The translations under genes and the position numbers were made by a program. The notes beneath the pieces are model-generated. The model was not told where the DNA came from. It saw only the letters and a program-made list of their open reading frames with translations, and did not search any database. Source: a virus (lineage: Duplodnaviria; Caudoviricetes). From it: a stretch of DNA of 56,378 bases. Below, one piece after another: positions 2 to 47,153 of the stretch. Location: the IMG/VR virus record IMGVR_UViG_3300027816_000119, positions 1 through 56,378 of that record; one strand, 5' to 3'. Each line of letters begins with the position of its first letter. Within the stretch, counting starts at the first letter, position 1.

Positions 2-3000
2 ACCTACATTATTGATTGCCATATCACTCTTACCATCTTTAACTTCTAGATAATCAGGAATACCATTATTATCAGCATCAGCTGCAAAGTTATTTGCTTG
101 AGGTCCAACAAAATCTGGATTAGGCCCAACTACAGTACTACCACCATTATCATAGTATCCACCATATCCATAATCAGGCATGTAACCACCATAAGCCATA
201 TATGTAGGAACATATCCCCCATATGCCATTGGTAATTGATCTAAGTAATCTTCATTACCTTGAGGTACAACTGAAGAAGGCTGATTACCTCCTGTAGATC
301 CTGCTGGTGGACTAGAAAAATTAAAATCTTCTGCTGTAGGTATGTATTTTGGATCTGAAGTTGGATTTTCTACACCAGGTTTTGGAAAAGGCCCTTTAAA
401 ATTATTGTCAGAAATTCTTGGATTACCTCTTCTTTCATTTATAGCACCACTATCTAAAGGCATATCCCAGAGATCATTTTTCATAAAGTCTCTTCTCATC
501 TTTCTTTTACCAAAGAAACCTTTGCTTTCATATTCATTAGCAAGTTCACTTCTAGTACCTCCTTTAGTATCTCCAAACAAAGCAGGACCTTGTTTTTTAA
601 AGTCTTTCTTAGAAAAACCAGATACATCAAAAGCATCATTCAACCTATCTTTATCAGTATAAGTCTCATACATTTTTTCACCATCAATATCAGTACCTGT
701 ATATCTTTGACTATTTCTTTCATTATAAAATTGAGGAGTGTTAATAACCTCACCTTTGTTACCAATACCAACTATTTCTCCTTGATCATTAACATTAGTG
801 GCTAACATTTCATTTCTTCCAATCTTTCCAGTAGCATCTCTAGCTTGATCATCTTGTACATCTTCTTGAGATCCCTCAGTTGTTGATATATCTTGATTAT
901 TTATATTAGTTGTAGGTTGATTTTTATTTTCATCACCTGGTAAAGCATATGGATAACCTTTCCATCCTGGAATTGTATTATCTGTTTTGTTATCAGTATT
1001 AGAAGTAGTATTAGTCTTAGCATTAGGATCATTATTTGCAGCATTTCCAGCAGCATTCATTACTTCCCACTTAGTAATTCTTTTATCTTTATCAAATGGA
1101 TTAAACCACTTACCTTCTTTGTATTTAGTTTTAACAAGAGTCTTGGTAGGATCTTTCATCATTTGAGCAATCATAGCCTGATCAATTTGACCATCCGGAC
1201 TTGTATAATAATCAAAGTCTCTACTAAAACCAAACATGTTACCAATCATAGAACCAAAGTTTTGTTTAGCTGGACCAAAACCAATTACAGGATTTCCGTC
1301 ACTGTTGGTATAATTAAAAGTACCTTTGTTCTTTAAATCCTGTCCAGTAGGCAAACCTTGACTTCTTAAATATTCTTCAAAACCTTTTTTAGCATTAGGG
1401 TCTGATTGAAATAACTTACTAAAGTAATCTTGATTATAAGGATTAGTTGAAGTATTTGAGTTAGTAGTATTATTTGTAGTAGTAGTGTTAGTAGTACTAG
1501 TATTAGTAGTAGATGCATTTGGATTTTTTTCAGCTTCTTGTTCTGCTTTCCATTCTGCCCAACTTTGAGGTGCTGCTGTACTATAAGCTCCAGTATAAGT
1601 TGAATTTGGACTATTCTTAACTTGTTTACCAGCCAACTCACTATGTCTATCAATATAGTCTTGATAATTCATACCGCGTGCATCTCTATAGTTAGGATCA
1701 ATTTGCTCACCACCAGGATTAAATTGTCTAAGAGATCCACCATAAGCATACTCATCACCACCATAAATAAACTTTTGTAAGTTACCATACTGATCTGGTT
1801 GTAAATTATTTATTGAACCACCAAAAGCTTTTTGATAATCTTCAAAATCTAAAGCTGGTGTTGCACCAAAAATATCATATGGATTTTGAGCACCTGCTTT
1901 GCCAGATACATTTAACCAATCAGCATACTTAGGACTATCTCCACTAAAGTCATAATCATATAGATCAACAGTATTAGTAGTACCGTATGCTTTTTGATTT
2001 TCTTTTTGAAACTTAAGCCATTTATCTATGTATTCATCTAAATTTTTCATTCTTGGTAAATCTTGTTTTGGAATTCTTGATTTAATTGCCTCTATAGCTT
2101 CTTTCTTTGTTACTTTTGATAAGTCAAGTTTTGTTTCATTAAATTTTTCAGCATCAGTAAACCAATCAGACTTATTAGCTGCTCCATAAGCAGTAAGTGC
2201 TTCAGGTAAGTCATTAAATATATTTCTATCCCAACTTTGATCATCAGATAAAGTATAACAACTTTGTCCAGGATAACAAAACTCTTCTGTTTGTGATCCT
2301 GTTTGCTTTGATGTTAATGAATAAGGTGAACTATTAACTGTTGTTGAACTTGATGAAGCTGGTGAATTATTCCCTTCAGTATTCATCATGTATGAATTAT
2401 CTTGAGGATACATTAAACTTTCATCTAGATTTTCAGATGAGAACCTATCAGAATTTAAAAAGTCCATATCTTCATTTCTAGGAACTGGAGTATTAAATGG
2501 ACTTATAGGTTTATTTGTAATTGGCGAATATGGTGTAGGTATAACTTCATTTGAGATAGCTCTATCTTCACTTTCTGATGAAAAATTATTATAGTTTAAT
2601 AATTGTTCATCTGTAAGATTTGGTTGAGATGCTCTTGTTGACATTGTTGTACCAGGTGATCTTTTTACCCAGTGGTCATATTCACTTAATCCATCAGCAT
2701 CTTTTGCAATAAACTGATTAATACTGATAGGAGCTGCTTTACCTCTACCAGAAGCAGCTGGTCCTAAAGATGTCCACCAATCAATATAGTCTTGATATTT
2801 TTTTGTTTGATCAGCTGATACAGGATTATTATTAATTTTAACTTCATTATTTTTAGTTGGATCTGCTGCATTATTAACACTCTCAGTAAACCATTTTAAT
2901 TTAGTTATAGGAGCTGATCTAACAGTTCTAGTTGTTGAATAAGATTGATTAAAATTAAAACCTGGAGCATCTGATGTCCACCAATTCCATAACCCTCTAC

Positions 3001-4240
3001 CTTTTGGCATACTATCACTTACCTGTGACATATAATCTTTTAGTAAGTTAGGATTTGCTTTTAGCATCTCAGACATTTTAGACATGTCATAAGTAGCTTT
3101 TGCTTTTCTTACACCACCAAATGGTCCAAATTCATAATCAGTATCTACAAATGGAGGAGCTATAGGTACACCAAACATACCTCTATTAGCTCTTCTTATT
3201 CTTCTACTAGTTCCTCCAAAAGACATTTGTTGACCATTAAAATCAGTATTAAGCCCTGTAGTACTCATGTCTGGCATTTCATGTGAAAGAGCTTCTCCAT
3301 AGTTATGTAAGTTAGTAGCCCAATCATTTGCGCCACCATTCTCAAATTGTTGATTATACATGCTTTCTGCTTCTTGTTTATATCTTTGTTCATCTGCAAA
3401 ATTTTGAGCTGTACCCTTTATTGCAGACACTAAAGATTTATTAGGAGTAAGATTTATTCCTAAAGGATTATCTAATGTTCCATATGGATTTGGTTGTTTC
3501 TTTATAGATGGGTCTTTTTGCATACCCATTTCTGCTTTTCTAAGTTGTTTAACTGTTGAGTTAATAAACTTCTTTTTATTTGGAATACCACCTTTACGCA
3601 TTGTATTTAAATCCATCTGCATACCAGGCCATTGTATGTTATATCTATCATCTTGCATTTCCATACCATATTGTGCTGTTGCTAATTTTAAAGCATCTTC
3701 AGAAACTTGATTAGGATCATCCATGAGTATTTCATCATCTTCATCAAAGTCTTCTTGAAGATCTTGATCAGACTCATCATTCTCATCTTCTTCAGTTTCA
3801 TAACTTTCATCAATATCTCTAACAGCATCTTCTGATAAAGCTTTACTTTTTTTATTACGTTCTTCAGTTAACCTATCTTCTTCTTCTCTTTTTCTTTCTC
3901 TTCTTTCATCTTCAGTTTCAATAAGTTCAGAATCCATCATAGATTGTTTCTTCTTACTTCTTCTTCTTTTTGAAGAATAGTAATCATCTTCTATTTCATC
4001 CATTACTGAATCAACAAGTTTTTTAGAATAGTCATATGTATAACCTGCATTTTGTAATTGCTGTATAACTATTCTATCAGAAAGATTGTTTTTATCAATA
4101 AGATCTGCAATTTGTGATTTTAATTCTCTTTCTGAATCAACTTGCATACCTGGAGCTGCTGTAGGTAGTGATGTAAATTTATCTAATCTACTAATAAATT
4201 TACCTGTTGTACCTCCAGACTTATATATTCTAACTTTCAT
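2..4240 (-). CDS. Giant low-complexity putative virion cargo/ejection polyprotein, 3' end beyond window (>1400 aa; absent from ORF track)
   Basis: ATG at 4240 (MKVRIYKSGGTTGKFISRLDKF...). Same frame is open in the segments translated by hand and at the window edge (...FAADADNNGIPDYLEVKDGKSDMAINNVG). Acidic tract, N/T-rich tracts and many xxGG motifs. Not every codon checked. Confidence 0.8.
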   Translation of the reverse strand, partial: MKVRIYKSGGTTGKFISRLDKFTSLPTAAPGMQVDSERELKSQIADLIDKNNLSDRIVIQQLQNAGYTYDYSKKLVDSVMDEIEDDYYSSKRRRSKKKQSMMDSELIETEDERRERKREEEDRLTEERNKKSKALSEDAVRDIDESYETEEDENDESDQDLQEDFDEDDEILMDDPNQVSEDALKLATAQYGMEMQDDRYNIQWPGMQMDLNTMRKGGIPNKKKFINSTVKQLRKAEMGMQKDPSIKKQPNPYGTLDNPLGINLTPNKSLVSAIKGTAQNFADEQRYKQEAESMYNQQFENGGANDWATNLHNYGEALSHEMPDMSTTGLNTDFNGQQMSFGGTSRRIRRANRGMFGVPIAPPFVDTDYEFGPFGGVRKAKATYDMSKMSEMLKANPNLLKDYMSQVSDSMPKGRGLWNWWTSDAPGFNFNQSYSTTRTVRSAPITKLKWFTESVNNAADPTKNNEVKINNNPVSADQTKKYQDYIDWWTSLGPAASGRGKAAPISINQFIAKDADGLSEYDHWVKRSPGTTMSTRASQPNLTDEQLLNYNNFSSESEDRAISNEVIPTPYSPITNKPISPFNTPVPRNEDMDFLNSDRFSSENLDESLMYPQDNSYMMNTEGNNSPASSSSTTVNSSPYSLTSKQTGSQTEEFCYPGQSCYTLSDDQSWDRNIFNDLPEALTAYGAANKSDWFTDAEKFNETKLDLSKVTKKEAIEAIKSRIPKQDLPRMKNLDEYIDKWLKFQKENQKAYGTTNTVDLYDYDFSGDSPKYADWLNVSGKAGAQNPYDIFGATPALDFEDYQKAFGGSINNLQPDQYGNLQKFIYGGDEYAYGGSLRQFNPGGEQIDPNYRDARGMNYQDYIDRHSELAGKQVKNSPNSTYTGAYSTAAPQSWAEWKAEQEAEKNPNASTTNTSTTNTTTTNNTTNSNTSTNPYNQDYFSKLFQSDPNAKKGFEEYLRSQGLPTGQDLKNKGTFNYTNSDGNPVIGFGPAKQNFGSMIGNMFGFSRDFDYYTSPDGQIDQAMIAQMMKDPTKTLVKTKYKEGKWFNPFDKDKRITKWEVMNAAGNAANNDPNAKTNTTSNTDNKTDNTIPGWKGYPYALPGDENKNQPTTNINNQDISTTEGSQEDVQDDQARDATGKIGRNEMLATNVNDQGEIVGIGNKGEVINTPQFYNERNSQRYTGTDIDGEKMYETYTDKDRLNDAFDVSGFSKKDFKKQGPALFGDTKGGTRSELANEYESKGFFGKRKMRRDFMKNDLWDMPLDSGAINERRGNPRISDNNFKGPFPKPGVENPTSDPKYIPTAEDFNFSSPPAGSTGGNQPSSVVPQGNEDYLDQLPMAYGGYVPTYMAYGGYMPDYGYGGYYDNGGSTVVGPNPDFVGPQANNFAADADNNGIPDYLEVKDGKSDMAINNVG

Positions 4241-4305
4241 GAGTGGCTATTATATATTAAATATACTAATTTTTAAATTAATCATTAAACTTTATAAGTT
4301 TAGAT

Positions 4306-7300
4306 TTAGTTATTAAATGGGTTTCTAACATCATCTCCTGTTAAAGCATATGGTTTTCTATTTTTATCCAGTTTCCATGATGCGGCATTATGATCATAAG
4401 CTGCATTGTTTATATTACCTATTTTTGACCAACTAGTCTCACCTGCAGGTTTGTACCATATCATATTGTTATATACATAAGTTACATTCTTATTCTTTAA
4501 TTTTTTTGCAATGTTATAAAAATGTTCTTTTGTTTGTGCTACAGTCATTAACAAGTCAATACTATTAGCTGCCCTTAAATATACATCCTTTGTATTTGTT
4601 AGATTTTTAGATTTTAAAATATTATCTATAGGAGTGTTAAATGTCATAGGTACTTCAGCATAATCTATGTTATAAGCTTTTTTATTCTTAGCATGTTCTT
4701 TAAATGATTTTACTTGATCTGGAATATCAGTAGCAATCACTTTAATTTTCTTTTGTTTTATTTTTGGGTTTTGTGTTAACTCCCATACAGATACACCAGC
4801 AAGTTTTGGATCAGAATTTCCTAATGCAGATCCTATATCAATAATAACAGAGTTAGGTTTAGCCATATCAGCAAAGAATTTTTCTGAGTCAACATTTCTT
4901 TGAACATCCGTTCTATTAGCAATGTCTCTACCCCTACTCATAAATTTACTATAGCGTTCATAATCTTTTTGTTGTCTACCTAGCCATTCTTGATCAACTA
5001 ATTGTGAACTAATACTATTGTCAAAAACAGGAGGTTTTTCTTCAACAGTTTCTTTTGAAGATATATCTTTAGTTAATTTACTCATTGCATCCCAAAGAGA
5101 TAGTTCAGGATCTGGTTTTAAATCAAGAGATGTATTTTCAATACCTTGACCTCTTTGACCATATTCTGCAAATTGAGCAGCACTATTATTACCTAATGGT
5201 TGTTGAGAAGGTTGTCTTGTTAATGATGGTGGAGCACCTGCCATATTTGATTGTGTTAATTGAGCTCTTAGAGCTTCCATATCATATGGCTCTATAACTT
5301 GTTTTTGTTGTACTTCAGGTTTTGCAAACTTTTTAAGTTGATCCATTTTATTTGGAAATAACTTATTCATATCAATTGTAGGTGCCGAAGGTGTTTGTTT
5401 CGCACTATATGGAGAATAACTAACATCTGCTTCTTTTAAAAAGTCTACTACACCTAAGTTATTTAGATTATTAACTTTAGTTTTTGCTTCTTGTTCTGAA
5501 ATTTTTGACATCCTATTAATCCAAGAGTCATAAGCAGTAGACACAGCATCTCCTACTTTATCAATATAAGGAGATGCAAACTTAGATAATGCATCAAATT
5601 GTTCCATTATTGTAGTTCCTTTCTTAGGTTTAGGACCTGGTTTTTTAGGAGCACTTACATTCTTTTTATTAGCAAATAATTCTGGATACTTAAATATTAA
5701 TCCTTCTCTAGTACCTACTTTTTGTTTTACTAAGTCATCTAAGCTATTACCTTGTTTTACTAAAGCAAATACCATTTGATCATATGGAGTAACTGTAGGA
5801 GTAGATTTTGTATCTACTATTTTAGGTTCTCCAAATTCACCAGCCTGAAGTCTTTTAACAAGAGCTAAGTTTTGTTCCATAGTTCCATCAGTAAGACCTT
5901 TAGCTTTTGCTTCAGACCAAGGGGTTCCTGTATATTGATACCATATATCAGATGGTGTACCACCATTAGCCATCATAGGAACAGATACTTCTTCAACATT
6001 ATATCCGTTATTTAAATAGTGTTGAATTTTATCTTCTGGAATATCTAATTCTATATAATCATTTGTAGCTCCACCTTGTTTATAAGGATTATGAACATCA
6101 AAAATAAATCTTGGTGACTCACTTCCAAAACCTTTTGTATTAACTCCAGATACTTTGTAACCTAACTTAGATGGTAATAATAATTCTTGTTCATCAACAT
6201 ATTGTGATCCTGTATACATATTAGGCCTAAAAGCACTTTGTCCTTCAGGAACATTTATAATAGCTACTTTAGATGTAGGATCACCACTTCCCCAAACATT
6301 GCCTGTCATATCAGTAGTTGTACTCCAATTATGTTCTGGATATATTACATCTCCTTCAAGTAAATCATCATAATTTAACATAAGTTCCTGATCACCTCTC
6401 ATTGTTTTAACAGGTCTATTAAAACTAGATGTTCTTCTAACTTGAGCCGGTGCTTTAAGTTTATTAGCCCCTATGACTGGTTCAATTTGATTAGATAAAT
6501 ATTCTGCAAACTGTTTATTACCACCATAACCAGGATTCTTATTAAAGTAACCAGAGTATTCTAACTGATAAGTATCACCTAAAAACTTTTGTTGATTAGT
6601 TAAATCATTTTCTAAACCAGTTGATTTAGCAAATTCATCATCAACTAAAAATCCTTCATTAGACTTTAATTTTCCTACATCATCATGTGCACCAAATACT
6701 AATATTTCATCATCCTTTCCTTTACCAAATTGTTTTTCAAACTTTGGTTTATATTCTTTCAATAATGCATTTGCTTCATTTTTAGCTTGCATAAAAGATT
6801 CTTCAGTTGGAAATAATTCTGGATAAGCTTCATTAGCAGCCTTAAAATTTTTATAACCTTTAGCATGTCTTAACTCTTCAATATTTCTATACTTACTAAG
6901 TATACTACCTTGCGGCTTACCTTTGGTCAATGTTTTAAATCCTTTACCTACATCACTAACTAAATCACCAGCTTTAGCAAAAGTTCCTGCAGTTCTTAGT
7001 CCGCTTAAACCAGGTGCTATTAAACCAGCAACACCAATTGCATCCATTGTTTCATCAAAACCCTCCCCATAGTTAGAACCCGTAAGAGGATTAACACCCA
7101 TGTCAAATTTTCCAGTATTAGCATAGTTATATACACCTTGTCCTAAACCAAGAGGTAGTGTAGTTATATCTCCCATACTTTGACCAACACCTTTTAATGT
7201 GCCTAACGGATCTTCATATACTCTATGTGCTGATGCTATACCAGAAAGTTCAGCAGCAGCATCTCTTACTAAATTAAAGTTTTCAGTTTTTCTAGCGTTA

Positions 7301-9939
7301 GCCTCATCTACTGCATCTTGAAATTGTCCTTTGTAACCTTCCTTCATTAGATTAGAATCAAATTTATCCCAACCTTTTTTCTCATATTCCATTCTAAATT
7401 TAGTACTGGCACTTGGATCTTTACTGTTTTGTGCTTTTTCTCTAGCTTTTTCATACTCAGCTCTATCAGCTGCTTCTTGTTTTCTTTTTTTCTCAGCATC
7501 TTTAAGCTCTGTATTAAAATCACCTTTAAGTCTTTTAACTTCTGATTTAAACTTTTTAATACCTTCTCTATTATAAACAGCGGGTTCTATGTCTCCTTGA
7601 ACACCTGCAATATAACCAACACCCTTACCCAACTCTTCAGCTTCTTTAGTAAGTTTACCAATGTCTTTTCTAAAGAAATCTTGTACTTTTCTTTTAAAAC
7701 CTTTTTTACCAGCCTTAACATCAACGTCACCAAAATCTTTGTAAATTAATCCAGTTGTTGGATCAACATTACTACTACCACTATATCTTTGTGCTGGTGC
7801 AATCCATTGACTCTTAGGAGATCCCCCATTATTAAATCTATTTAAATTAGATGGATAAAAATTATCAAGTTGTTCTACAATATATCCACCATTTATATAT
7901 TTATAAATTTCACTTTCTGGTATGTCTAATTCTATATAATCATTTATTACACCACCTCTTCTATGTATATCTAATGGTACATTACGATCATGATCTCTTA
8001 ATAATTGAGGAATAGATACCTTTTGGTTTTTATCCAGCATCCTAATACCTTGATTACTTACTATATTATAATTTGATCTTATTTCGTGTGGTAGTCTATT
8101 AGACATATAGTGTCCTGAAGTATTTAAATCATATATATTAAATTTACCTGTTCGTGGATTAAATAGAATATTATCTGTATTTTGAAAATCTACATATAAA
8201 CCACTATCTTGTAAATCTTTAATATCTTGAACTAGTTGTTCATAACTACCTCTTCCAACACCCTGCGTAGTATATTGTCCTTTATTACTAATGTCTAATG
8301 TATTACCTGCTTCTTCTTTAAGTATGTTATACCTTGTACCTGTATCATCAACTTTATTCATTACAGTAGCATATTGTTCAGGGTTCTCCCAACTGACATT
8401 ACCCGTTGATAACTTTTGATATCTGATTGGAATTGCAATATTACTTCTATCTCTAAGAGATTTACCTTTTTCAATTAATTCATCTAAGTTTTCATCTCCC
8501 GGAATTCTACCTATTTTTACAACTTTATTAGATCCTGGTATGCTAAATACTTTGCCAAAACTTCCTGAACCTAATTCTTCTTCAAAAGGTGAATACTTTT
8601 TAATTCTATAAGCATCTATTTTTGCATCAACTGTATTCAAATCCATTATAAACTTATCTGCTTTTAAGGAGTGCTCTTTTTGTAATTGTTGTCCAAGTTC
8701 ATAATCTCCTTTAGCTTCAGCTTCTTTTATTTTTTTATTAATCTCTATTGTCTCTTTATTTCTGTTTTTGACTATAAGTTCTTTTTCTTTTCTAAATTGC
8801 CTTGGTATTTTTGTTTTATTTGAATATATTTTCTGAAACTCAGTTAACTGATCTAAGTCAGCAACTTCTGGATCCCATACTTCTTGATATCCTTTTTTCC
8901 AATGAGGAACTTCTCCTGGATTATGAAACTTACTATTATTTCCTAGTACCTTATAAGTATGTTTTAAAGGTGTTTTTGTAGTAAGAAATTTACCAGCATC
9001 AATAGCTAAGTCTGTATTTTTAGTAAACTTTGCTAGTTTACCAGCTGCACCAATTCCTGGTATTACACCAAGAGCATCAAATGTTTCACTTGCACCTTCA
9101 CCATAATTTGCACCAGTAAGTGGATTGATACCCATATCAAAATCACCTTTAGTTGCATAGTTATAAATACCTTCTCCTAAACCTACAGGTAAAGTAGCTA
9201 CATCACCAACAGTTTGTGCAACACCTTTAGCTGTACCAAGAGGATCTGTTAATACTCTATAACCAGCACCTCCACCTAAAAATTCTAACGCAGTATTAGT
9301 AACACCCATGTTAGCTTCTTTTCTAGCATTGGCTTCATCTACTGCATCTTGGAATTGACCTTCATATCCTTCTTTCATTGTAGCAGGATCATAGTTAGCC
9401 CAACCTTTTTCATTATACTGTTGAGCAAACTTATCAGTAGACATCTTTCCAGACTCTTTTTTCTTTAAAGCTTTTTCATATTCTTTTCTATTTCTTTCTT
9501 CAGCTTCATAACCTTTTTCAGCATTCTTGACATCTTTTGTAAACTTATCAAGACCTGCTTTAGTAAAGTTAACAGGTTCAAGGGCTTCACCCGGCATACC
9601 AAAATAAGCACCAGCATTCTTTCCTAAATTTCTTGCTACATCAGCTCTAGTCTTACCGCCTCTTAAAATATAGTCAGAAAACTTTTTACCTTTCTTAGCT
9701 GATGCTTGAACTTGAGGAAGATTTTTAGTACCACTACTATCATAACCACCATACATTCCTGTATAAGAATCTGCAGCTTGCACATTACCTGTGCCCCAAT
9801 TATATTGTACGCATTTTCCAGAAGCATCTCTTATCTGTCCTCTAGGACATGGAGCACCACCTGGAGCAAACTTATTTAATACACCACCTGTTCTATATGT
9901 AGGAGCCTGAGGTAAGCCTACTATTCTAAACTTTTTCAT
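4306..9939 (-). CDS. Multidomain effector polyprotein: carrier module + kinase-like, carrier module + ADP-ribosyltransferase, C-terminal SAM methyltransferase
   Basis: GSGSFGKV/VVKI/DFQNTDNIL/IYDL kinase motifs; R..STT..EQE ART motifs; IIDIGSALG/IATDI/RAANSI MTase motifs; internal ~250-aa duplication; lies downstream of muzzle gene. Confidence 0.75.
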   Translation of the reverse strand: MKKFRIVGLPQAPTYRTGGVLNKFAPGGAPCPRGQIRDASGKCVQYNWGTGNVQAADSYTGMYGGYDSSGTKNLPQVQASAKKGKKFSDYILRGGKTRADVARNLGKNAGAYFGMPGEALEPVNFTKAGLDKFTKDVKNAEKGYEAEERNRKEYEKALKKKESGKMSTDKFAQQYNEKGWANYDPATMKEGYEGQFQDAVDEANARKEANMGVTNTALEFLGGGAGYRVLTDPLGTAKGVAQTVGDVATLPVGLGEGIYNYATKGDFDMGINPLTGANYGEGASETFDALGVIPGIGAAGKLAKFTKNTDLAIDAGKFLTTKTPLKHTYKVLGNNSKFHNPGEVPHWKKGYQEVWDPEVADLDQLTEFQKIYSNKTKIPRQFRKEKELIVKNRNKETIEINKKIKEAEAKGDYELGQQLQKEHSLKADKFIMDLNTVDAKIDAYRIKKYSPFEEELGSGSFGKVFSIPGSNKVVKIGRIPGDENLDELIEKGKSLRDRSNIAIPIRYQKLSTGNVSWENPEQYATVMNKVDDTGTRYNILKEEAGNTLDISNKGQYTTQGVGRGSYEQLVQDIKDLQDSGLYVDFQNTDNILFNPRTGKFNIYDLNTSGHYMSNRLPHEIRSNYNIVSNQGIRMLDKNQKVSIPQLLRDHDRNVPLDIHRRGGVINDYIELDIPESEIYKYINGGYIVEQLDNFYPSNLNRFNNGGSPKSQWIAPAQRYSGSSNVDPTTGLIYKDFGDVDVKAGKKGFKRKVQDFFRKDIGKLTKEAEELGKGVGYIAGVQGDIEPAVYNREGIKKFKSEVKRLKGDFNTELKDAEKKRKQEAADRAEYEKAREKAQNSKDPSASTKFRMEYEKKGWDKFDSNLMKEGYKGQFQDAVDEANARKTENFNLVRDAAAELSGIASAHRVYEDPLGTLKGVGQSMGDITTLPLGLGQGVYNYANTGKFDMGVNPLTGSNYGEGFDETMDAIGVAGLIAPGLSGLRTAGTFAKAGDLVSDVGKGFKTLTKGKPQGSILSKYRNIEELRHAKGYKNFKAANEAYPELFPTEESFMQAKNEANALLKEYKPKFEKQFGKGKDDEILVFGAHDDVGKLKSNEGFLVDDEFAKSTGLENDLTNQQKFLGDTYQLEYSGYFNKNPGYGGNKQFAEYLSNQIEPVIGANKLKAPAQVRRTSSFNRPVKTMRGDQELMLNYDDLLEGDVIYPEHNWSTTTDMTGNVWGSGDPTSKVAIINVPEGQSAFRPNMYTGSQYVDEQELLLPSKLGYKVSGVNTKGFGSESPRFIFDVHNPYKQGGATNDYIELDIPEDKIQHYLNNGYNVEEVSVPMMANGGTPSDIWYQYTGTPWSEAKAKGLTDGTMEQNLALVKRLQAGEFGEPKIVDTKSTPTVTPYDQMVFALVKQGNSLDDLVKQKVGTREGLIFKYPELFANKKNVSAPKKPGPKPKKGTTIMEQFDALSKFASPYIDKVGDAVSTAYDSWINRMSKISEQEAKTKVNNLNNLGVVDFLKEADVSYSPYSAKQTPSAPTIDMNKLFPNKMDQLKKFAKPEVQQKQVIEPYDMEALRAQLTQSNMAGAPPSLTRQPSQQPLGNNSAAQFAEYGQRGQGIENTSLDLKPDPELSLWDAMSKLTKDISSKETVEEKPPVFDNSISSQLVDQEWLGRQQKDYERYSKFMSRGRDIANRTDVQRNVDSEKFFADMAKPNSVIIDIGSALGNSDPKLAGVSVWELTQNPKIKQKKIKVIATDIPDQVKSFKEHAKNKKAYNIDYAEVPMTFNTPIDNILKSKNLTNTKDVYLRAANSIDLLMTVAQTKEHFYNIAKKLKNKNVTYVYNNMIWYKPAGETSWSKIGNINNAAYDHNAASWKLDKNRKPYALTGDDVRNPFNN

Positions 9940-9941
9940 AT

Positions 9942-12900
9942 TTAAATTTCTTCAAATGTATAACCTAAACCTAAACTTTCTAAATATCCTTTAGTATCTT
10001 CATCTACTTCATCACCTAATTGGTAATCAGTCTCACCACCTTCTTCTTTAATTATTAAATTATAACCTGGTGTACCTTCTCTTCCTAAATCTTGATGATA
10101 ATAACTTTCAAAATCTTGTTTAGTAAGACCACCTGGATTTAATCCATAGTACTCATATCTACCATTATCTAAATGAATATATTGAGCATCTTTATTTTTC
10201 TTCAAAAAGTCATTTACTAAATCTACACCTTTTTTACCAGATGTTATATAAGCAAATTCAGCTTTCTTAGTTGATGGTGAATACAATATAAACTTACCTG
10301 TGTTAGGTGTATTCTGATAAATAGGATCTCCGTTTTTATCCAAGAGTCTCATTTCATTACCATTCATTATTGCTTTATCTATATTCTTAGCTCCAAATCT
10401 TCTTGGTACTATTTCAGTATCTGGATCAAATTCATTTGCTTTACCTACTTTAAATTTACCATCTTCTATTCCATAGAAAGATTCAATTTTATTAGATGGA
10501 TACTTTTTATCTGAATATGTATCTGTAGCAGTTAACCAATCTTTAGCCTTTCTAACTGTATTATTAGCATCCTCTATAAACTCACCACCGATTATAATTT
10601 TACCATCTTTTGTTTCATTAACTTTAGCAAAATCCATAGGGGTATTAGTTATATCAATAAGTGTATCTTTAGAACTTAAACCTCCAGGTACACCTGTAAC
10701 TCCAACATTTTTTAAAATTTTATTTTTAATCGGGGGTGGTGAAAAAGCTGTTCCAAAAACAGCAGCGGCTCCAGGATAAGCTGATCCTACTAAACCAGCT
10801 ATTGTGTAATCAGTAGCATTCCAGTTTCTTCCTCCATAAAGTATTGGGTTTACTCTACTTCTATTACCTGTAGTAATAGCTTCATTTAAATGTTCATCCA
10901 TGTAGTTAGGTAAAGTCCAATCACTTCCATATTTATTTATTAAATCCGCATGTTCTTGAGAAAACTTTTGATATTCAGGTGAATTTTTATAAGCTAATAT
11001 TTCTTCTTCTGTTAAAGGTCCTTTTGGATATCTTTGAAATGCTCCTTTAAGATTTATAGAGTAGCCACTTTTTACTGGAGGAGGTGTACCACCTTCAATA
11101 GGAGCTTTTGGTTCTACTTGTAGTAATGATTCTTTATTATAACCTCTTTTACCAAAATCAAAATTACTATTCTTAAGTCTGTCTAATTCTCTTAACTGAG
11201 CTTCAGTAAGCATATCCCCTTGTTTCCTACCTGTTTCAATAAGATCATTATAAAACTTTCTATTAGCAAATGACATTTTTTTAGAATCATAACTATCTAA
11301 CAGTTGCTTATAGTAATTTAAATTTTTCTTAACCATATTACTACCACTACCACTTGGTCCTAGTAACATCATAGGTCCAGGAGGTCTATTAAAAAATTTA
11401 TTTACCATGTTTGATACAGGTGAATTAGGAGAGCCAGGTAATTGCTTAGACCATGTTTTACCTCCATCTAAACTATACTCTATATCTTTACCTTTAACAG
11501 CCGGATACTGACCCATAAAACCTAGATCCTTTTTACCTTTATTAGCAAATCTTAATAATACAGGTTTACCACCAGTTGCTTCTGCTGAGTAACCTGCAAA
11601 ATTTAAAGCATATCCACTATCTCCTGCAGCAGTTGTAAAACCTTTTCCTAATTTATCAGGCATCATACCACCTGTATTTACGGCATCACCTAAACTATTA
11701 TCCAATTCAGATGATAAAATATTTTTTAATCTAGCATCAGATGTACCGTGATATAAGTATTTAGGCACAGGAAGTTTTAAATCATTTTTTATTACTTCTG
11801 CAGCAGCTATAAGATTAGAATTTGAAAAACCAAATCCTTTATTACTATAAGTATTAAGTACCTCATTAACTGTTTTATTAGAACTTTTTGCAACTTCTTT
11901 TAAAAAGTCTGCTGCTTCTTGCTCTGTTTTAAAACTTGAGTTAGCTACAATATCATCTATATGTTTTTGTAGTGTAATGTCAGAAGCTCCTGAAGAATTT
12001 ATTTTACCTGTATTTTGAAAAGTTGATTTAACACCTTTACCTAAATCAGTTACAAGATCTCCTGCTTTAGTAAATTTTGATAATTTACTAATAGCATTTA
12101 TACCAGGTATAGCTCCAAGAACATCAAAGGTTTGATTAATACCACTACCATAGTTTTCACCTGTAAGTACATTTGTACCCATATCAAAATTTCCGGTATT
12201 AGAATAATTTACTGCACCTTCAACTAAACCTTGAGGTAATGTTGCAACATCAGCAACAGTTTTAGCTACACCTTCAGCAGTACCAACAGGATCGGCAACT
12301 ATTCTATATGCTCCGCCACCAAGTAGTTCTAATGCTGTATTAGTAACTCCCATATTGGCTTCTTTTCTTTTGTTAGCTTCATCAACAGCTTCTTGAAATT
12401 GACCTTTGTAAGCTTCATTCATTACATTGGGATCAAATCTATCCCAGCCTTTTTCTTCATACTCCATTCGGAATTTAGTTCCTGCACTTAAATCTTTACT
12501 ACTCTGTGCTTTTTTTCTTGCCTTTTCATATTCTTTTCTTTCTTTCTCTTCATTTTTATAATACTTGTTTTGTTCAGAAACTATATTATTTATATAACTT
12601 TTAAATCTTTTAATTCCTTCTTTAGTTGTATTTGTAGAAATTAACGGTTCATTAGCACCTATACCAAACTCTGAAGAATATTTTTTACCAAAGTCTTTCA
12701 TTTGTTCTAACCTGGTTTTACCACCTCTGAGAATCCAATCAGAAAGTTTCTTTCCTTTTTTAGCTTGAATATTAATACCACTTTTATTTTTAATCCATTC
12801 TTTTGAATTTCTATCATACTCCCATCCTTCTGCTTGTGGACCGATATGGTAATCCCAATCAACATCCACAAGATTCCAATCTAAGGGAACACATTCTCCT

Positions 12901-15473
12901 TTAGAATTTCTATAATATCCTCTACCACATGGAGAACCACCTTCTATAAATTTATCTAATGATCCACCATACTTTCCATACTGAATATCATCTTTATTAG
13001 AATCCTTCTTAGCAATAAGATTAAATAACCTCATTAAGCTTTCATCATCTTTTGCTGTTCTAAATAATAAGTAAATATCTTGATTAAAGTTTTTATTATC
13101 TTTATCAAGCATTCCTTTTTTCTCAGCCTCCTCTCTCATCTGATTCAATCTCTCTGGAGTAATTACCTCATCAGGTTTAAGATTAAATTTCTTTCTAGCC
13201 ACATTAAGATATGATTGAATATTCTGTTCTTCTGGATTTATTATGTAATCATAAAATTGTTGTTTTTCTTTTGGCCAAGTTTTATCAAAAGGAATTATAT
13301 TTTCTTTTACAATTTTGTCATACATAGGATACAACTTGTCTCTCACAGGTTCCATAAGATAATTAGTTAACTCATGTCTTTCTGTATCAGACTTTTGTTC
13401 AGGTGTAAGTTCTGGACTAAAATATATTTTTGGAACTTTTCCACTTGTGTCATACATTCCAACTGCTCGGAAACCTCCTATATTTTCTTGCGTATATTCC
13501 TCTGGCATTGTTTCATATACTGGGAATGATTGCATTTGTTTAAGCATAGGTGATTCAGGATTGTATGCTGGTAATGCTTTTTCTACAACCTTTTTAAAAC
13601 TAGGTTGATCTTCTGGAAAATCTATTTTTCTATTCTTATACCATTCAACCATCCATCTTTGATCTTCTGTCATATTCTCTTCAGACAGAGGAATACAACC
13701 AAGTTTTGGATCATAAGTATAACCATCATCACATGGAGAACCACCTGCTATAAATTTATGTAATGACCCACCAAGTTCTTGCTTATATGGACTCATAAAT
13801 TGACCTGGATCATTTGGTCCTTTTTTTAAATATACATTATTAGCAGGATTTTTATTTACAATACCATCAGGTAACATGTTTTGATTAGAGAGTTCTAATA
13901 AAGCATTTGTCTTATCTCTTGAGCTCATAGGTAATATACCTACACCAGCACCAACAGCATTATTTAGTATATCTTCACCAGACTCTGTAAATTTAACCAA
14001 CCATGGTCTATCATCATTAAATATAGTTTCTAACTCATGACCTACACCCATTGCATTAGCACCTAAAAAACCAGCAGCTTGCGGTATACCTGTGTATTGT
14101 GCCCAGTCTGGAAAATAATCCATAATTGCTTCAGCTGCATATCTACCACCTTGAGGATGTCTAAAATTATCTATAGGATCATCATCTTCTTTTGCAGCAC
14201 CATAAGCAGACATAGCTGCTTTGTCCATAGGATTATCTAAAGCACTATTTATTTTATCCTCAAAGCTATTACCTCTATATAAAATTTCTTGAGTTGAACC
14301 AGGATCATATAGTTCTATTTCTTTTATTTCTCTTAGCAATCCTGCTGCTGTTTCTTGATCAGCAAGTAAAGGTGAATTTTTTAATTTCTCATATTGCTCA
14401 ACTAACTTTTGATAATAAGAACTAAATGTATCAGTTTTTTTGTTAGCTTTTTTAGCTGCAGCTTTAGCTTTTTTAGATGCTTTTATTGTAACTTCTTTAA
14501 GATTTTGTATATATGTAGGATTGTATGATCTTTTAGGAATAGTCTTGTCTAAATATTTTTTAAATTCTTCATCTGAATTATTTTCTAATATTCTTCTTTT
14601 TTCATCCTGTAATAAATACAATGGAGTATAATCAACTAATGCATTTTCACATCTTTTAGTATATGGATTCCATACTTGACCTTTCCCACATGGTTTATTT
14701 GAACCACCTCTATCATAATCAACTAAGCCACCATCTTCATAATATTTTGCATTAGGATCATAAATTCTATTCTTTACTTTCTTAGGTTTAAATAATTTAT
14801 TTTTTACAAACAGTTTATTCTTACCAAAAATACTTTTTGTGTACTTCATAGAATTTAAACTACCACCCTTACGGAACTGCTCTCCTACAGATCCTAATGC
14901 AGCTATTACTTCAGGCTTATCATCAAAATGCTTTTCTACTCCAAGTTGTTTTACTTTACGTACCTTAGCTTCATCTGAACCAGTAGCTATAATATTTTCA
15001 ACTGGAATGCCTGCTTGTCTAGCTCGGGCAATCATATCTGGTGTTACTTTATCTCTGGCAGATACAATAAAAAGATTATAGCCATCTCTAAACATTTTCT
15101 TAGCTTTAGCTAAACCTTCAGGTGTTGCAATAGTTTTATCAAAGTCAAAAGATGCATATTTACCTTTACCAAAATCTTCTGGCTGCTCCATCTCTGAATG
15201 CTCTCTATAATTAGCTGTAAGTTCTGAACCAGCGGGGATATTTTTTAAAGCTCTTAGGTATCTTTTATCTCCTATTACTTCATTACTAGTATTAAAGTTT
15301 TTTTCATCATGATTATAGAACTTACCAAACTGATTTGGTACAAATCTTATTCTATCATTATCTATAGGAATGCCAGAGTGTACGGGTAATATTAGTTCAC
15401 CCTTTTTAATTAGTTCTTGAGTAAATAAACCTTTACCATGTATCTTGGACTTTCCAACTTTTACTTTCTTCAT
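9942..15473 (-). CDS. Multidomain effector polyprotein: SET, HAD-like, DNFRH/DILNN domain, degenerate zincin, carrier module, HGT-type ART-like, C-terminal unknown domain
   Basis: SKIHGKGLF..NH..GSELTANY (SET); FDFDKT..VSAR..FDD (HAD); HELTN; LYHGTS; third copy of carrier module. Confidence 0.75.
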   Translation of the reverse strand: MKKVKVGKSKIHGKGLFTQELIKKGELILPVHSGIPIDNDRIRFVPNQFGKFYNHDEKNFNTSNEVIGDKRYLRALKNIPAGSELTANYREHSEMEQPEDFGKGKYASFDFDKTIATPEGLAKAKKMFRDGYNLFIVSARDKVTPDMIARARQAGIPVENIIATGSDEAKVRKVKQLGVEKHFDDKPEVIAALGSVGEQFRKGGSLNSMKYTKSIFGKNKLFVKNKLFKPKKVKNRIYDPNAKYYEDGGLVDYDRGGSNKPCGKGQVWNPYTKRCENALVDYTPLYLLQDEKRRILENNSDEEFKKYLDKTIPKRSYNPTYIQNLKEVTIKASKKAKAAAKKANKKTDTFSSYYQKLVEQYEKLKNSPLLADQETAAGLLREIKEIELYDPGSTQEILYRGNSFEDKINSALDNPMDKAAMSAYGAAKEDDDPIDNFRHPQGGRYAAEAIMDYFPDWAQYTGIPQAAGFLGANAMGVGHELETIFNDDRPWLVKFTESGEDILNNAVGAGVGILPMSSRDKTNALLELSNQNMLPDGIVNKNPANNVYLKKGPNDPGQFMSPYKQELGGSLHKFIAGGSPCDDGYTYDPKLGCIPLSEENMTEDQRWMVEWYKNRKIDFPEDQPSFKKVVEKALPAYNPESPMLKQMQSFPVYETMPEEYTQENIGGFRAVGMYDTSGKVPKIYFSPELTPEQKSDTERHELTNYLMEPVRDKLYPMYDKIVKENIIPFDKTWPKEKQQFYDYIINPEEQNIQSYLNVARKKFNLKPDEVITPERLNQMREEAEKKGMLDKDNKNFNQDIYLLFRTAKDDESLMRLFNLIAKKDSNKDDIQYGKYGGSLDKFIEGGSPCGRGYYRNSKGECVPLDWNLVDVDWDYHIGPQAEGWEYDRNSKEWIKNKSGINIQAKKGKKLSDWILRGGKTRLEQMKDFGKKYSSEFGIGANEPLISTNTTKEGIKRFKSYINNIVSEQNKYYKNEEKERKEYEKARKKAQSSKDLSAGTKFRMEYEEKGWDRFDPNVMNEAYKGQFQEAVDEANKRKEANMGVTNTALELLGGGAYRIVADPVGTAEGVAKTVADVATLPQGLVEGAVNYSNTGNFDMGTNVLTGENYGSGINQTFDVLGAIPGINAISKLSKFTKAGDLVTDLGKGVKSTFQNTGKINSSGASDITLQKHIDDIVANSSFKTEQEAADFLKEVAKSSNKTVNEVLNTYSNKGFGFSNSNLIAAAEVIKNDLKLPVPKYLYHGTSDARLKNILSSELDNSLGDAVNTGGMMPDKLGKGFTTAAGDSGYALNFAGYSAEATGGKPVLLRFANKGKKDLGFMGQYPAVKGKDIEYSLDGGKTWSKQLPGSPNSPVSNMVNKFFNRPPGPMMLLGPSGSGSNMVKKNLNYYKQLLDSYDSKKMSFANRKFYNDLIETGRKQGDMLTEAQLRELDRLKNSNFDFGKRGYNKESLLQVEPKAPIEGGTPPPVKSGYSINLKGAFQRYPKGPLTEEEILAYKNSPEYQKFSQEHADLINKYGSDWTLPNYMDEHLNEAITTGNRSRVNPILYGGRNWNATDYTIAGLVGSAYPGAAAVFGTAFSPPPIKNKILKNVGVTGVPGGLSSKDTLIDITNTPMDFAKVNETKDGKIIIGGEFIEDANNTVRKAKDWLTATDTYSDKKYPSNKIESFYGIEDGKFKVGKANEFDPDTEIVPRRFGAKNIDKAIMNGNEMRLLDKNGDPIYQNTPNTGKFILYSPSTKKAEFAYITSGKKGVDLVNDFLKKNKDAQYIHLDNGRYEYYGLNPGGLTKQDFESYYHQDLGREGTPGYNLIIKEEGGETDYQLGDEVDEDTKGYLESLGLGYTFEEI

Positions 15474-18400
15474 TACCTTGGAGAATATTGATTTTTAGTA
15501 TTAAATATTTTCAAGATCATATTAGTATCTCTTGAATTTACTTTAGCTAACTTAATAAAATTTAAGTAATGTCTAAACTTTTTTCTCTGTAATTGATTTT
15601 TATTTATATCAATATTCTGATAGTTGATAGTTTTAATATAACCATTAGGTGCAGTTATCCATAAATTTTCTTGTCTATAAGAACCAGATAAAATTGTTGT
15701 CCCAGGTATTACAGGATTTGTAGGAGGATAGTCTGGTAACTGTTGAGGAGAAGGATAAGGAAATTCTCCACGGTCTTTTACTGAATCCCAGAATTGATTA
15801 AATCTATATTTGTTTTCTTCTTTAGAAAATAAAATATCAAATCCAGCTTTTGGTGTAATTGTAGGATCAATAAAAATTGAATTGTTAACTTTTGGATATT
15901 GTAAGTTTAGTGGTGGATTATTCTTAGCATAAATATTTAATTTCAAATATGGTGATATTTGTTCTGTATTATGAATTACAGCATAATCAAAATTATAATC
16001 TAGTACATGAAATTGATCTACACAGTTTTCTTGGTTTCTTTTATAACATTCTAAAACATATTCTACACTTTTTAAAGTAGTAACAGTTTGACCAGTTACT
16101 ATTGGAAACTCAACTTCAAATGGATACTGCGTCCCATAAAAATTACAATAGTCATTACATTCAATATTATGAGCCCAAAATTCATCAGCTCTTGTACTTA
16201 CAATTGTACTCTTAGTAGGTAAAGTAAGATCTGGATGCCAGTCATGAAATGAAATCCAAAATCTATTTTTAGGGTCATAACTTGCTGTCCATGAAGCATC
16301 TTCAAATATTGCAGGATCTCCTAAAATATAAATTTTATTTCCTTGTAAAGGATCCATAGTATCTAGAAAATAACTTTCAGTAGGTGTACTTATATATTGA
16401 ATTCTATTTGGATTTTGTGGTGTATTAAAACCATCTATCAATTTATAATCTTTTTTACAGAAATATAATACTGAATTTTCATTATCATAAATAGCTTGAC
16501 ATCCAATACCGGCTACAGGATTATCAGCATAATCATATTCTGGAAAATCTTCTAATAACTTAGATGGTAAAAATTCATCAAACCACCATTTCATTCCTGA
16601 TTGTGATATCTCTGTTATACCTTCATTATAAGTAAATATTTTACCTTGATTTTGTGATATATAATAAATACCAGCCGGTGTAGATATAACAGCCAATCTA
16701 CTTTGAGATGAACCATACTGATATGGTTTATCTGTAACAACTAGATTTTGAGCTTCTCTTGCAAATAACCCACCATCTCCTACAGTTACTTTAACACCTG
16801 AACCATCAAGTTGTAATTGATCAACTCCTTGAAATACTTGAGGGCCATCATTTTTAAATGTAATAAGAGCTCCGGTTCTAGCAAAGTTTTTAACTGAACT
16901 AATTTGACTAATAAAATCTTTACGGTTATTAGGTAGAAAAATAAACCATGCATCTTCTACAGAGCCTTGAACAAAAGGTAAAGAATAAGTAATAACATTA
17001 GGAAAATATGTATAACATAAACTTGCTACCTTAGGATCATAGTATCTATTTTGTAATGCACCAAATGTTAAAAATTTACTTGGTAATCTTGATGCACTTA
17101 AAGATAAATCATAAATATAAAAATTACCTCTTGTAATAATTATAGGATCCATTTTAAATAACTGTTGTAAATCAGTGTATCTATATGGATGATAACATTT
17201 TTCAAAATCAAATGTACCTACTTCTCTAAAGTCAAGAAGTATATCTGTTTCTACATAAAAGTCTCTTACTCCAGACACAGAAGTATAAAAGTATGAATTT
17301 CTAGGAATCCAAAATCCAGGATAAGGTGTAGCATCATCAGTAGAATGATCATAATTTATACTTTCTAGATTATAAAAATCTGTAGGAAATAGCCCAGTAC
17401 CCGGAGCAGCTGCTGTTGTTATTCCTAAAAAGTCAGATAAGTTTTCTACAGATATATTAGAAAAATCATAGTGTGTACTATTCATCCAGTATCTTGCTTG
17501 AGGAAGCATTTGATTTACAAAATAGTTATATTCAAAATCATCTGCTACTCCATACAACCAGTTATAAAACATCAACATTATATTCTTTTCTGTAAATCTA
17601 CATATGTATGTATCACCTCCAAAAAAGATATCTGTTTGAGCAATTAGTTTGTAGTAATAAGTTTGAGGAGTTGGTATAGGATCATTTAGTGTTGCTACAC
17701 TAGGTTGTATAAAATTACCTAAAAGTGCTGGACTATAGTCTTTTATCAAAGTACCAAAAGCATCTCTCTTTTGTTCACAAGGAGTAATTACTTGTTGCTT
17801 TATAGAATCTAACTGGCCGTATTGATTTTTTAAAGTTACTTTTATAGCACCATAGTGACTAGCTATTTTTGTTTGAAACCCAATTGTCTTTTTATCTTCC
17901 TCATCAATTTTAGGACCTAATCCTCCTACGTCTGCATGATACAGTGTAATTGAAGATTGATCCTGAGCATTACTAATTTGTTGAGCTAATGTAGTACCTG
18001 AAGTTAAAAAGCTTGGTCCTGTTGTAGCACCAGTATTTGCTTGAGCTGTTCTTAATACAACCAACTTGGGTCTAAAAATATTTTGTATTGTATATTTTTT
18101 AATTGTGCTTGTAGTAGTATCAATATAATCTGGAATTTCTTGATTGGTATCATTAATAACATATAGTGAATCTTCTACTTTAAATCTATATAGTTCACCT
18201 GGTTTTCTAGGATCAAATCTATCATAGTAACCATGACCAATTTGTTGTAATGCATATTGCTTTAATGGAGCAATAGCATATAAAAATTCATTAGCTGTTT
18301 TTAATCCTTGTGCAAAGAAAAAAGCAAAATTTTGTAGACCACCTAAAAATGCTAACCAAGGTGGTAACATCTGAGATTGAGAAAGTTCATTTGTATAAGT

Positions 18401-46994: not shown

Positions 46995-47153
46995 TTATCT
47001 ATTTTTAATTGTAAAATTTAAAATAGTAAGTAGGTAAAATTCTCTTGATAAATCTAGTTCTAGTGAAAATAAGTCTAAACTAGATACTCTCAATCTTATC
47101 ATCAACTTATCCCACTGCTTTTTTGAGGTATTCCAGTTATTCCTAAATTTCAT
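46995..47153 (-). CDS. 52-aa protein coupled to endolysin (not in ORF track)
   Basis: ATGA overlap with amidase stop; MKFRNNWNTSKKQWDKLMIRLRVSSLDLFSLELDLSREFYLLTILNFTIKNR; ends just before terminator. Confidence 0.65.
   Translation of the reverse strand: MKFRNNWNTSKKQWDKLMIRLRVSSLDLFSLELDLSREFYLLTILNFTIKNR

Follow-up and report, generated by a model that had tools for sequence, protein, structure and literature searches.

A Gly-Gly motif as the signature of a proposed boundary and terminal tag system in the giant cargo proteins of an uncultured crAss-like phage

The window analysed here is the entire viral contig IMGVR_UViG_3300027816_000119 (Duplodnaviria; Caudoviricetes), which is 56,378 nucleotides (nt) long and ~47% complete by estimate, corresponding to roughly half of a crAss-like phage genome. 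All large open reading frames (ORFs) of the window are carried by the minus strand. Directly downstream of the muzzle protein gene lie three giant ORFs, transcribed in the order C, B and A (Table 1). We read their products as the modular ('polyvalent') cargo proteins of this phage, which belongs to an uncultured lineage. The three ORFs are punctuated by a recurrent motif, [FYM]xxGG, in which Phe, Tyr or Met stands three residues ahead of the first of two Gly. The original prediction had regarded this motif as a candidate polyprotein cleavage or packaging signal. The observation is real and richer than first described. We read the motif as marking a conserved system of boundary and terminal tags on the modular cargo proteins of a clade of uncultured crAss-like phages.

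Enrichment of the motif and its composite junction

Every motif instance that had been listed from the sequence was found in the translations of the three ORFs. ORF B contains YRTGG, FAPGG, HRRGG, FNNGG, YKQGG, and MANGG, and ORF C contains FRKGG, YEDGG, YDRGG, QELGG, FIAGG, GKYGG, FIEGG, and KEEGG. The edge ORF A contains MRKGG, FENGG, MSFGG, KAFGG, FIYGG, YAYGG, FNPGG, MAYGG (twice), YGYGG, and YDNGG, plus the variants AQYGM and AEMGM. Expected counts were taken from within-protein, composition-keeping shuffles (n = 1000), and [FYM]xxGG is observed 11 times in A, 7 times in B, and 5 times in C where 1.0, 1.6, and 1.6 are expected, respectively. The total of 23 compares with 4.2 expected, is reached by 0 of 1000 shuffles, and amounts to 4.48 per 1000 amino acids (aa). 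The other 21 window ORFs of at least 150 aa (10,320 aa) hold 10 instances with 5.5 expected, or 0.97 per 1000 aa, and the muzzle protein holds 2 with 1.0 expected. Plain GG, by comparison, is only mildly in excess in A, B, and C combined (48 observed, 38.0 expected). In the three giant ORFs, [FYM]xxGG is strongly enriched, and it is specific to them; the enrichment over the rest of the window that had been put forward as a check was borne out. Alanine, initially included in the residue class, contributes no matches (23 observed, 6.7 expected).

The enrichment extends to the family. A set of 78 homologues (92,003 aa) contains 286 copies of [FYM]xxGG where 72.5 are expected (standard deviation 7.4), an excess of ~29 standard deviations. 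Across 727 GG contexts, position -3 is enriched 3.7-fold for F, 3.6-fold for Y, and 2.0-fold for M, while L, I, and M are enriched ~2-fold at position -6. With further preferences for Q/K/R at -2 and Y/S at +1, the pattern spans ~10 positions. In G002, the most complete of the related contigs (84%), the three cargo ORFs carry 2.28 motifs per 1000 aa compared with 0.67 in 80 other ORFs.

Sequence comparison shows that the motif is not a free-standing pentapeptide but lies at the core of a composite junction that is conserved. The first form of the junction is Phi-x-x-Phi-x-x-GG, typically L-x-K-F-x-x-GG, which is often paired as GG-x-L-x-K-F-x-x-GG and then followed by a C-x11-13-C beta-hairpin. 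In the second form, GGs lie within and on either side of a ~30-residue beta-alpha-beta mini-domain, GG-x2-DYIELD-x3-E-x-I-x2-Y-x3-GY-x-VEE, usually followed by DPSIP-x-L-N-x-F-x-x-GG. The pairing at about nine residues noticed earlier was recovered at B18/27, C568/577, C836/845, and A834/843, with C248/256 at 8 residues, and the homologues contain 66 GG..GG pairs spaced by 8–10 residues where 15.8 are expected. Only ten Cys occur among the 5,133 residues that A, B, and C have in total, and all ten fall in five C-x5-13-C pairs (A655/661, B31/43, C262/275, C581/593, and C849/861), and a GG pair precedes all four Cys pairs of B and C. In homologues, 44 of 64 C-x9-14-C hairpins have a GG at most 8 aa upstream. 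The Cys pairs may form disulfide or metal-binding hairpins; disulfides that stabilise the tail of crAss001 are listed in a table in the available part of PMC10172136. A profile of the mini-domain gave 14 matches in four of five contigs, all within giant cargo frames. Its matches to PDB sequences were at chance level only (E at least 0.66), and an Atlas search with the junction returned no usable match.

The junction is kept where little else is. A-type orthologues share 15–21% identity overall, yet retain the FGG..L-x-K-F-x-x-GG..YxxGG cluster, with G807 among 5 invariant columns. The DNA of junction copies is 67–76% identical, not above the 60–78% of the M modules, a ~300-aa helical module of which B and C hold three copies, and the junction is conserved at the protein level. 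Recent recombination scars were considered as a candidate and ruled out, as identity of the junction DNA equals that of its flanks.

Among distant relatives (P0084–P0087, P0089, P0053, P0040, and P0047) a second tag was noted, GG-[ED]-I-x-W-L-x-K-Y-[KN] at the C-terminus and MxxGWLDKY at the N-terminus. From this sister tag it seems that what has been retained is the L-x-K-[FY] peptide, with the glycines flanking it.

Separable units and their seams

The giant ORFs string together independent units, namely enzyme-like domains and three M modules, through one recurring composite junction. The M-module family comprises 57 proteins among 1.84 billion representatives, and domain order varies widely across them. 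Pfam was run on 47 of the 57, leaving out ORF C and P0049–P0057, and identified crAss_CARG1 (2), GNAT (2), one each of ART-PolyVal, Pkinase, SET, NlpC/P60, and glucosaminidase, and others. ORF C carries a SET domain (PF00856, E 3.2e-6) within window positions 15100-15473. Past this domain (about 14880-15160) an FDFDKT motif was noted which looks HAD-phosphatase-like by eye; the two stretches together make up C residues 1–200. Kinase-, HAD-, methyltransferase-, and ART-like stretches may be present in B and C, as read by eye. Searches of A, B, and C against PHROGs, NCBIfam, and PDB sequences gave only weak hints of an RNA 2'-phosphotransferase (E 0.076) and a GCG_CRPN repeat (E 0.012).

A well-predicted domain was also noted at C 579–819 (window 12774-13736; pLDDT, the predicted local distance difference test, 80–95), in which HELTN[YH] and EQNIQSYLNVAR are conserved across at least 12 homologues. 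In Foldseek, the model of C190–900 gave no match at E 0.001 or better, with several zincins listed at E 0.5–2.2. A wide VIA-align search with the same model gave helical-hairpin matches only (Z at most 5.9) and barely tested C579–819. For this domain Atlas pointed to LPD23, known from polyvalent proteins, at a score of 0.86, below the 0.9 level, which makes it a lead only.

The mini-domain is C-terminal in ORF C and internal twice in ORF B. Of the 78 homologues, 37 end in it, judged by G[YFH]x[VILF][EDVI] within the last 12 aa, where 0.26 are expected, and by reading of the termini about ten others finish with the mini-domain followed by ..LKKFIS/G. Homologue P0003 (762 aa) aligns collinearly to B1–692 and ends ..GYIVEQLD where B reads on NFYPSNLNRFNNGG. 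Nine homologues, including P0024 (E 2.6e-159) and P0009 (E 9e-125), end at B1318/1319, where B reads on VPMMANGG. The start of P0095, MQSGGSPS, aligns to B1323, MANGGTPS, and the M of MANGG has its counterpart in a start codon elsewhere. Five further homologues (P0008, P0064, P0065, P0072, and P0073) start with MxxFKKGG or MxxYKKGG at C197 and lack the SET-containing N-terminal part. In the four further contigs behind the six related loci described below, ORFs with the mini-domain at their end are directly succeeded by ORFs that open with M-[KR]-[KR]-x-[KR]-I. As junction elements are the natural N- and C-termini of stand-alone homologues, the units occur fused in some phages and separate in others, and since they are separate genes elsewhere the giant ORFs are fusions.

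Some homologues end away from motif sites (P0001 at B573, P0014 at B153, P0035 at B95, P0057 at B250, P0051 at B118, P0016 at C984, and P0074 at C720), which may be fragments at contig ends. BLAST homology breakpoints fall within 25 aa of a site in 18% of cases for B and 25% for C, compared with 13% and 11% at random, a modest excess dominated by the ends of M-module high-scoring segment pairs. The proposal that the motif sits at domain boundaries is thus upheld by natural homologue termini beside four sites (B692, B1319, B1323, and C197) and by low-pLDDT blocks, and weakly by BLAST breakpoints.

Two AlphaFold models were made, of B1–760 and C190–900, each on a 26-row alignment. Averaged in 10-residue blocks, the sites at B18, 27, 223, 684, and 705 have a pLDDT of 34, 35, 40, 58, and 31, respectively, and those at C203, 248, 256, 577, and 845 have 31, 31, 31, 45, and 43. 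All modelled motif sites lie in blocks of pLDDT 24–58, that is, in segments predicted to be flexible. The Cys pairs are modelled as beta-hairpins. The hairpin C581–593 is predicted in blocks of mean pLDDT 90–91 (model residues 392–404) and packs on the next domain, with its GG pair in blocks of 24–45. The mini-domain of B is modelled as beta-alpha-beta (E668–672, H675–683, E687–690). A complex prediction of C 1770–1843 with B 1–60, for head-to-tail docking of the tag on the N-terminal strand of the next ORF, scored 0.14 where the mark is 0.32, and weighs neither way.

Table 1. Features of the window, with window coordinates; residue numbers refer to ORFs A, B, and C.
Feature	Position	Strand	Basis or remark
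Major capsid protein, crassvirus type	36015-37631	-	Pfam
Tail ring protein 2	21899-22561	-	Pfam
Tail ring protein 1	20877-21899	-	Pfam
Muzzle protein gene	15473..20875	-	crAss_MUZ PF25731, E 4.2e-27; context anchor, outside the motif system
ORF C, 1843 aa	9942..15473	-	First cargo-position ORF past the muzzle gene; SET, three GG-pair/Cys-hairpin junctions, one M module, C-terminal mini-domain
ORF B, 1877 aa	4306..9939	-	Fusion of three units: 1–692, about 700–1319, 1323–1877
ORF A, at least 1413 aa, runs off contig end	2..4240	-	Densest in motif (11 [FYM]xxGG)
FRKGG, C 200–204, seam between the SET-plus-following N-terminal part and the remainder	14862..14876	-	Five homologues start at C197
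GG pair and Cys hairpin (YEDGG..YDRGG..C-x12-C), C 245–275	14649..14741	-	Sequence, AlphaFold model
GG pair and Cys hairpin (QELGGSLHKFIAGGSPC..C), C 565–593	13695..13781	-	Sequence, DNA repeats, AlphaFold model
GG pair and Cys hairpin (GKYGGSLDKFIEGGSPC..C), C 833–861, opens M module 3	12891..12977	-	Sequence, DNA repeats
M module copy 3, C 895–1204	11862..12791	-	Protein repeat comparison with copies 1 and 2
KEEGG and mini-domain at natural C-terminus, C 1809–1843	9945..10049	-	Profile E 2.9e-8
GG pair and C-x11-C hairpin (YRTGGVLNKFAPGGAPC...C), B 15–43	9811..9897	-	Model strands E35–37, E43–45; DNA repeat family D3
M module copy 1, B 95–331	8947..9657	-	C836–1158 vs B18–331: 51% identity, E 1.6e-85
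Internal junction 1, B 659–709: HRRGG, mini-domain (DYIELDIPESEIYKYINGGYIVEQLD), linker, FNNGG	7813..7965	-	Profile E 1.8e-15; P0003 ends at B692
M module copy 2, B 734–1055	6775..7740	-	42% identity to C895–1204, E 5e-63
Internal junction 2, B 1286–1330: YKQGG, mini-domain, VP, MANGG	5950..6084	-	Profile E 2.4e-17; nine homologue ends, P0095 start
Cluster KAFGG..FIYGG..YAYGG..FNPGG, A 804–847	1700..1831	-	Kept in A-type orthologues
Tandem MAYGGY/YGYGG/YDNGG array, A 1338–1370	131..229	-	Not aligned in orthologues

Tags, cleavage and inherited linkers

The reading advanced here is that the motif belongs to uncleaved, hinge-flanked boundary and terminal tags which serve cargo loading, ejection, and modularity, and we regard it as evenly poised between right and wrong. 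As the three ORFs are encoded directly past the muzzle gene, their products are presumably packaged in virions, from which they would be ejected into the host. The Gly-Gly dipeptides would act as hinges or turns that present short terminal or inter-unit tags, namely the L-x-K-F peptide, the mini-domain, and the hairpin. Such tags would help cargo units to be loaded into the particle and then to be threaded, one unit after another, through portal and tail. Their function would be the same at a free end as between fused units, leaving cleavage unneeded.

Several points weigh against this reading. Any binding of the tags to a partner in the virion is putative. Two further giant ORFs of G002 are almost motif-free (0 and 0.38 per 1000 aa), so if these are packaged too the tags are not a universal packaging signal. 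A GG occurs within the first 30 aa of 23 of 76 homologues with about 19% expected, which is a modest excess. The models are of low confidence overall, with mean pLDDT of 53.8 and 58.4 and 414 of 760 and 333 of 711 residues below 50, so the apparent flexible linkers may partly reflect shallow alignments. That the sites of this phage stay uncut is our inference. As the phage records are incomplete, absence of a peptidase family is no proof, and a dedicated protease could lie in unseen DNA. Lastly, a DUF2201-type metallopeptidase with a VWA domain is found in three of five contigs searched, the window not being one of them; among the four relatives, two have almost the same cargo locus.

One alternative, close to the original prediction, is polyprotein maturation, in which a phage or host protease would cut at or beside aromatic-x-x-GG, freeing the effectors and trimming the tags after targeting. 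This is considered unlikely. Its fullest form, in which the crAss-like clade would encode injected effectors as true polyproteins, with a phage or host protease cutting Phi-x-x-Gly-Gly seams and the mini-domain and L-x-K-F as removable capsid-targeting signals, is more doubtful still; in a tailed phage it would amount to a polyprotein strategy of the kind used by eukaryotic viruses. Location of the motif at predicted flexible seams between units speaks for processing, as does the occurrence of these units as separate proteins in relatives, hence their covalent linkage is dispensable. The motif near natural N-termini (MxxFKKGG) is also compatible with removal of a short propeptide, as in the capsid-targeting sequences of T4. 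However, the natural N-termini of homologues start upstream of the motif and not after it, and none of the 78 C-termini ends in GG, the natural ends lying after ..VEExD or just ahead of the second GG of a pair. The spacing is likewise unlike that of adenain sites or double-glycine leaders. With F/Y/M at P5 and a second hydrophobic residue at P8, the sites depart from the P4 consensus of adenain. Cutting tandem arrays such as MAYGGYVPTYMAYGGYMPDYGYGGYYDNGG (A1338–1370) would moreover leave fragments of 6–10 residues.

A search for a CE-clan, Ulp1-like, or other protease had been proposed as a check, and no CE-clan or Ulp1-like protease emerged from the records searched, which are incomplete. 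Peptidase_C48 is absent from five of five related contigs, which are incomplete (54–84%), and C5/adenain, C39, S78, S77, and ClpP are each absent from all five records formed by the window and four relatives, which are 47–84% complete. None of the six families was found in these incomplete records, and Pfam scans of the 24 window ORFs of at least 150 aa gave no peptidase family save a cell-wall amidase. On the other side stands the DUF2201 metallopeptidase of three of the five contigs searched. Among the best 25 of 39 families from a Pfam scan of 83 ORFs of G002, the only peptidases are this one, together with a VWA domain, and a weak PhageMetallopep match on that same ORF, which lies in the non-structural part of the contig. 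Built-in zincin-like peptidases have been proposed to process polyvalent proteins (PMC5512222, as far as its available text goes), and zincins are in the Foldseek list for the C190–900 model, albeit only at E 0.5–2.2.

The cargo protein gp45 of crAss001 bears on both possibilities. In the M-module relative P0033, YVNGG and FNAGG align with GG434 and GG447 of gp45, which remain intact within residues 425–552, modelled as a compact portal-bound domain in mature crAss001 virions (PMC10172136, available part). By analogy, the GG sites of the family would have an uncleaved precedent in this modelled segment. The gp45 gene (record positions 41987-44515) also encodes FDTGG at 17, FAEGG at 260, and FAYGG at 559, which flank two structured segments, the tail-bound helix (214–245) and the portal-bound domain, as cleavage between units would allow. 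This count is not significant alone (3 observed, 1.2 expected, p 0.12). The mass spectrometry of crAss001 was tryptic and on an excised gel band, and intact masses are absent from the methods in the part of PMC10172136 available. From the printed contexts, gp45 was further seen to hold 21 GG dipeptides, about ten of them with an aromatic residue 1–3 positions upstream. Cleavage at Gly-Gly is therefore neither shown nor refuted, and nothing found here points to it. From the earlier polyprotein claim, the polyprotein-like architecture is supported, with concatenated separable units and the motif at their seams as marked by homologue ends and starts, while maturation by a Gly-Gly-specific protease is not.

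It may instead be that the junction is an inherited generic linker, an ancestral flexible segment copied with the M module and hairpin and kept as harmless and tolerant of fusion and fission, with no specific role. Junctions do lie within duplicated blocks, as seen from DNA repeat families D3 and D4, the M-module families D1, D2, and D5, and protein repeats, and domain orders differ widely in the 57 M-module proteins. A linker of this kind seems improbable nonetheless, given that the motif is kept where the surrounding sequence is down to 15–21% identity, flanks unrelated domains, and shows residue preferences over ~10 positions. The mini-domain at the extreme C-terminus (37 of 78, with 0.26 expected) also argues against it, and as junction DNA is no better conserved than its flanks, the junction is not a recent recombination scar. 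Chance arising from a Gly- and Tyr-rich composition could draw on the only mild enrichment of plain GG, but has already been refuted by the composition-preserving shuffles and by the family-wide excess, and its probability is close to nil.

Phage context and related systems

The arrangement of muzzle gene followed by two to four giant ORFs recurs in six of six related IMG/VR loci. A search of viral contigs with a single protein found no such locus, and the six were obtained with a tighter M-module alignment as query. Orthologues of A, of 1313–1475 aa, occupy the same position in related contigs. The TAA of ORF C is followed after a 2-nt gap by the ATG of ORF B (window 9937-9944), spacing which fits translational coupling; cargo ORF boundaries with likewise tight spacing or overlap were noted in related loci. 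In crAss001, cargo proteins gp45–gp50 are encoded past the muzzle gene (PMC10172136, available part). The whole of ORF B had no match at E 1e-5 in a tblastn search of 50,697 named phage records, which places the phage in an uncultured lineage. A search of the same kind with the 66-aa junction gave chance-level matches only (E at least 0.7). The relatives are 54–84% complete.

Elsewhere in the window, a tail fibre or receptor-binding protein is the probable product of a 415-aa ORF (23255-24502), which has collagen triple-helix repeats, an Lcl C-terminal domain, and a weak CBM_5_12 match. An Amidase_2 (N-acetylmuramoyl-L-alanine amidase) ORF (47150-47836) and a PD-(D/E)XK nuclease ORF (44493-45323) lie within an otherwise structural one-strand gene block. 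No tRNAs were found in the window. The 100-kb contig G002 encodes ferritin-like, spore photoproduct lyase, arginine-tRNA-protein transferase C-terminal, and DUF2201 metallopeptidase/VWA domains. Downstream of its cargo ORFs come the two additional giant ORFs, of 1105 and 2599 aa. An RNA polymerase family was detected in neither, and PHROGs was uninformative on the five giant ORFs of this contig.

Cargo protein amounting to several megadaltons has to be selected, loaded, and ejected by crassviruses. The crAss001 atlas places the cargo, and a loading signal is not given in the part of it available (PMC10172136). A short, strongly conserved tag system would be a concrete and testable candidate for such a signal. 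The tags would mark the ends of cargo units, which could be fused or split at them, and if true this would account for the way in which new effector domains join the cargo set. The junctions also offer a practical guide for dividing giant hypothetical proteins from uncultured phages of Bacteroidota into their functional units. Word searches of the literature gave no description of the junction, although word searches cannot find a sequence motif.

The closest known systems are the polyvalent proteins (Iyer et al. 2017, PMC5512222, available text), giant polypeptides which string unrelated enzymatic and effector domains and are delivered with the DNA. The present proteins resemble them in carrying several unrelated catalytic or effector domains per phage polypeptide, and members of the M-module family contain ART-PolyVal, SET, GNAT, Pkinase, and NlpC/P60 (1–2 of 47 each). 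They differ in that the processing proposed there rests on built-in zincin-like peptidases. The available text of PMC5512222 has no recurrent Gly-Gly junction, C-terminal mini-domain, or Cys hairpin, and 'linker' and 'crAss' have 0 occurrences in it. The crassvirus cargo, represented by C1 (gp45) of crAss001, likewise has its genes immediately after the muzzle gene within the structural module (PMC10172136, available part), and the M-module relative P0033 carries the portal-binding domain of C1 (crAss_CARG1). In the window crAss_CARG1 has no match; its one match among five contigs, in G005, is inside an M-module protein. The window ORFs show no significant similarity to gp45 (best E 0.74), are 2–3 times longer, and have enzyme domains.

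Other systems share single features. Recurrent Gly-Gly sites in virion core proteins are known from adenovirus and African swine fever virus (ASFV), where the adenovirus protease cuts at (M/L/I)xGG and pS273R at GG-X in core polyproteins. Here the hydrophobic residue is at P5 and not P4, no CE-clan protease was found in the records searched, and natural termini are off GG|X. Double-glycine leader/C39 systems differ in spacing, and the motif here is mostly internal or C-proximal, with C39 in none of the five records (47–84% complete). Trimming of the T4 and giant-phage type depends on an S77-type prohead protease. The capsid-targeting sequences of T4 and the prohead-protease-trimmed ejection proteins of giant phages resemble the present tags in that diverse internal or ejected proteins have a short peptide in common at their termini (PMC9026906, PMC7411985, PMC5694885, available parts). 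In contrast, no S77/S78 was detected in the five incomplete records, and the most conserved tag here is C-terminal. The crass capsid protein is HK97-like. Encapsulin cargo-loading peptides are short conserved extensions on unrelated cargo that bind a pocket inside an HK97-fold shell (PMC8802124, available part). Unlike these, the present tags are also internal and N-terminal, have no sequence relationship to them, and are putative binding elements. What they have in common is a short conserved terminal peptide on otherwise unrelated cargo, found here in the 37 of 78 homologues with a C-terminal mini-domain.

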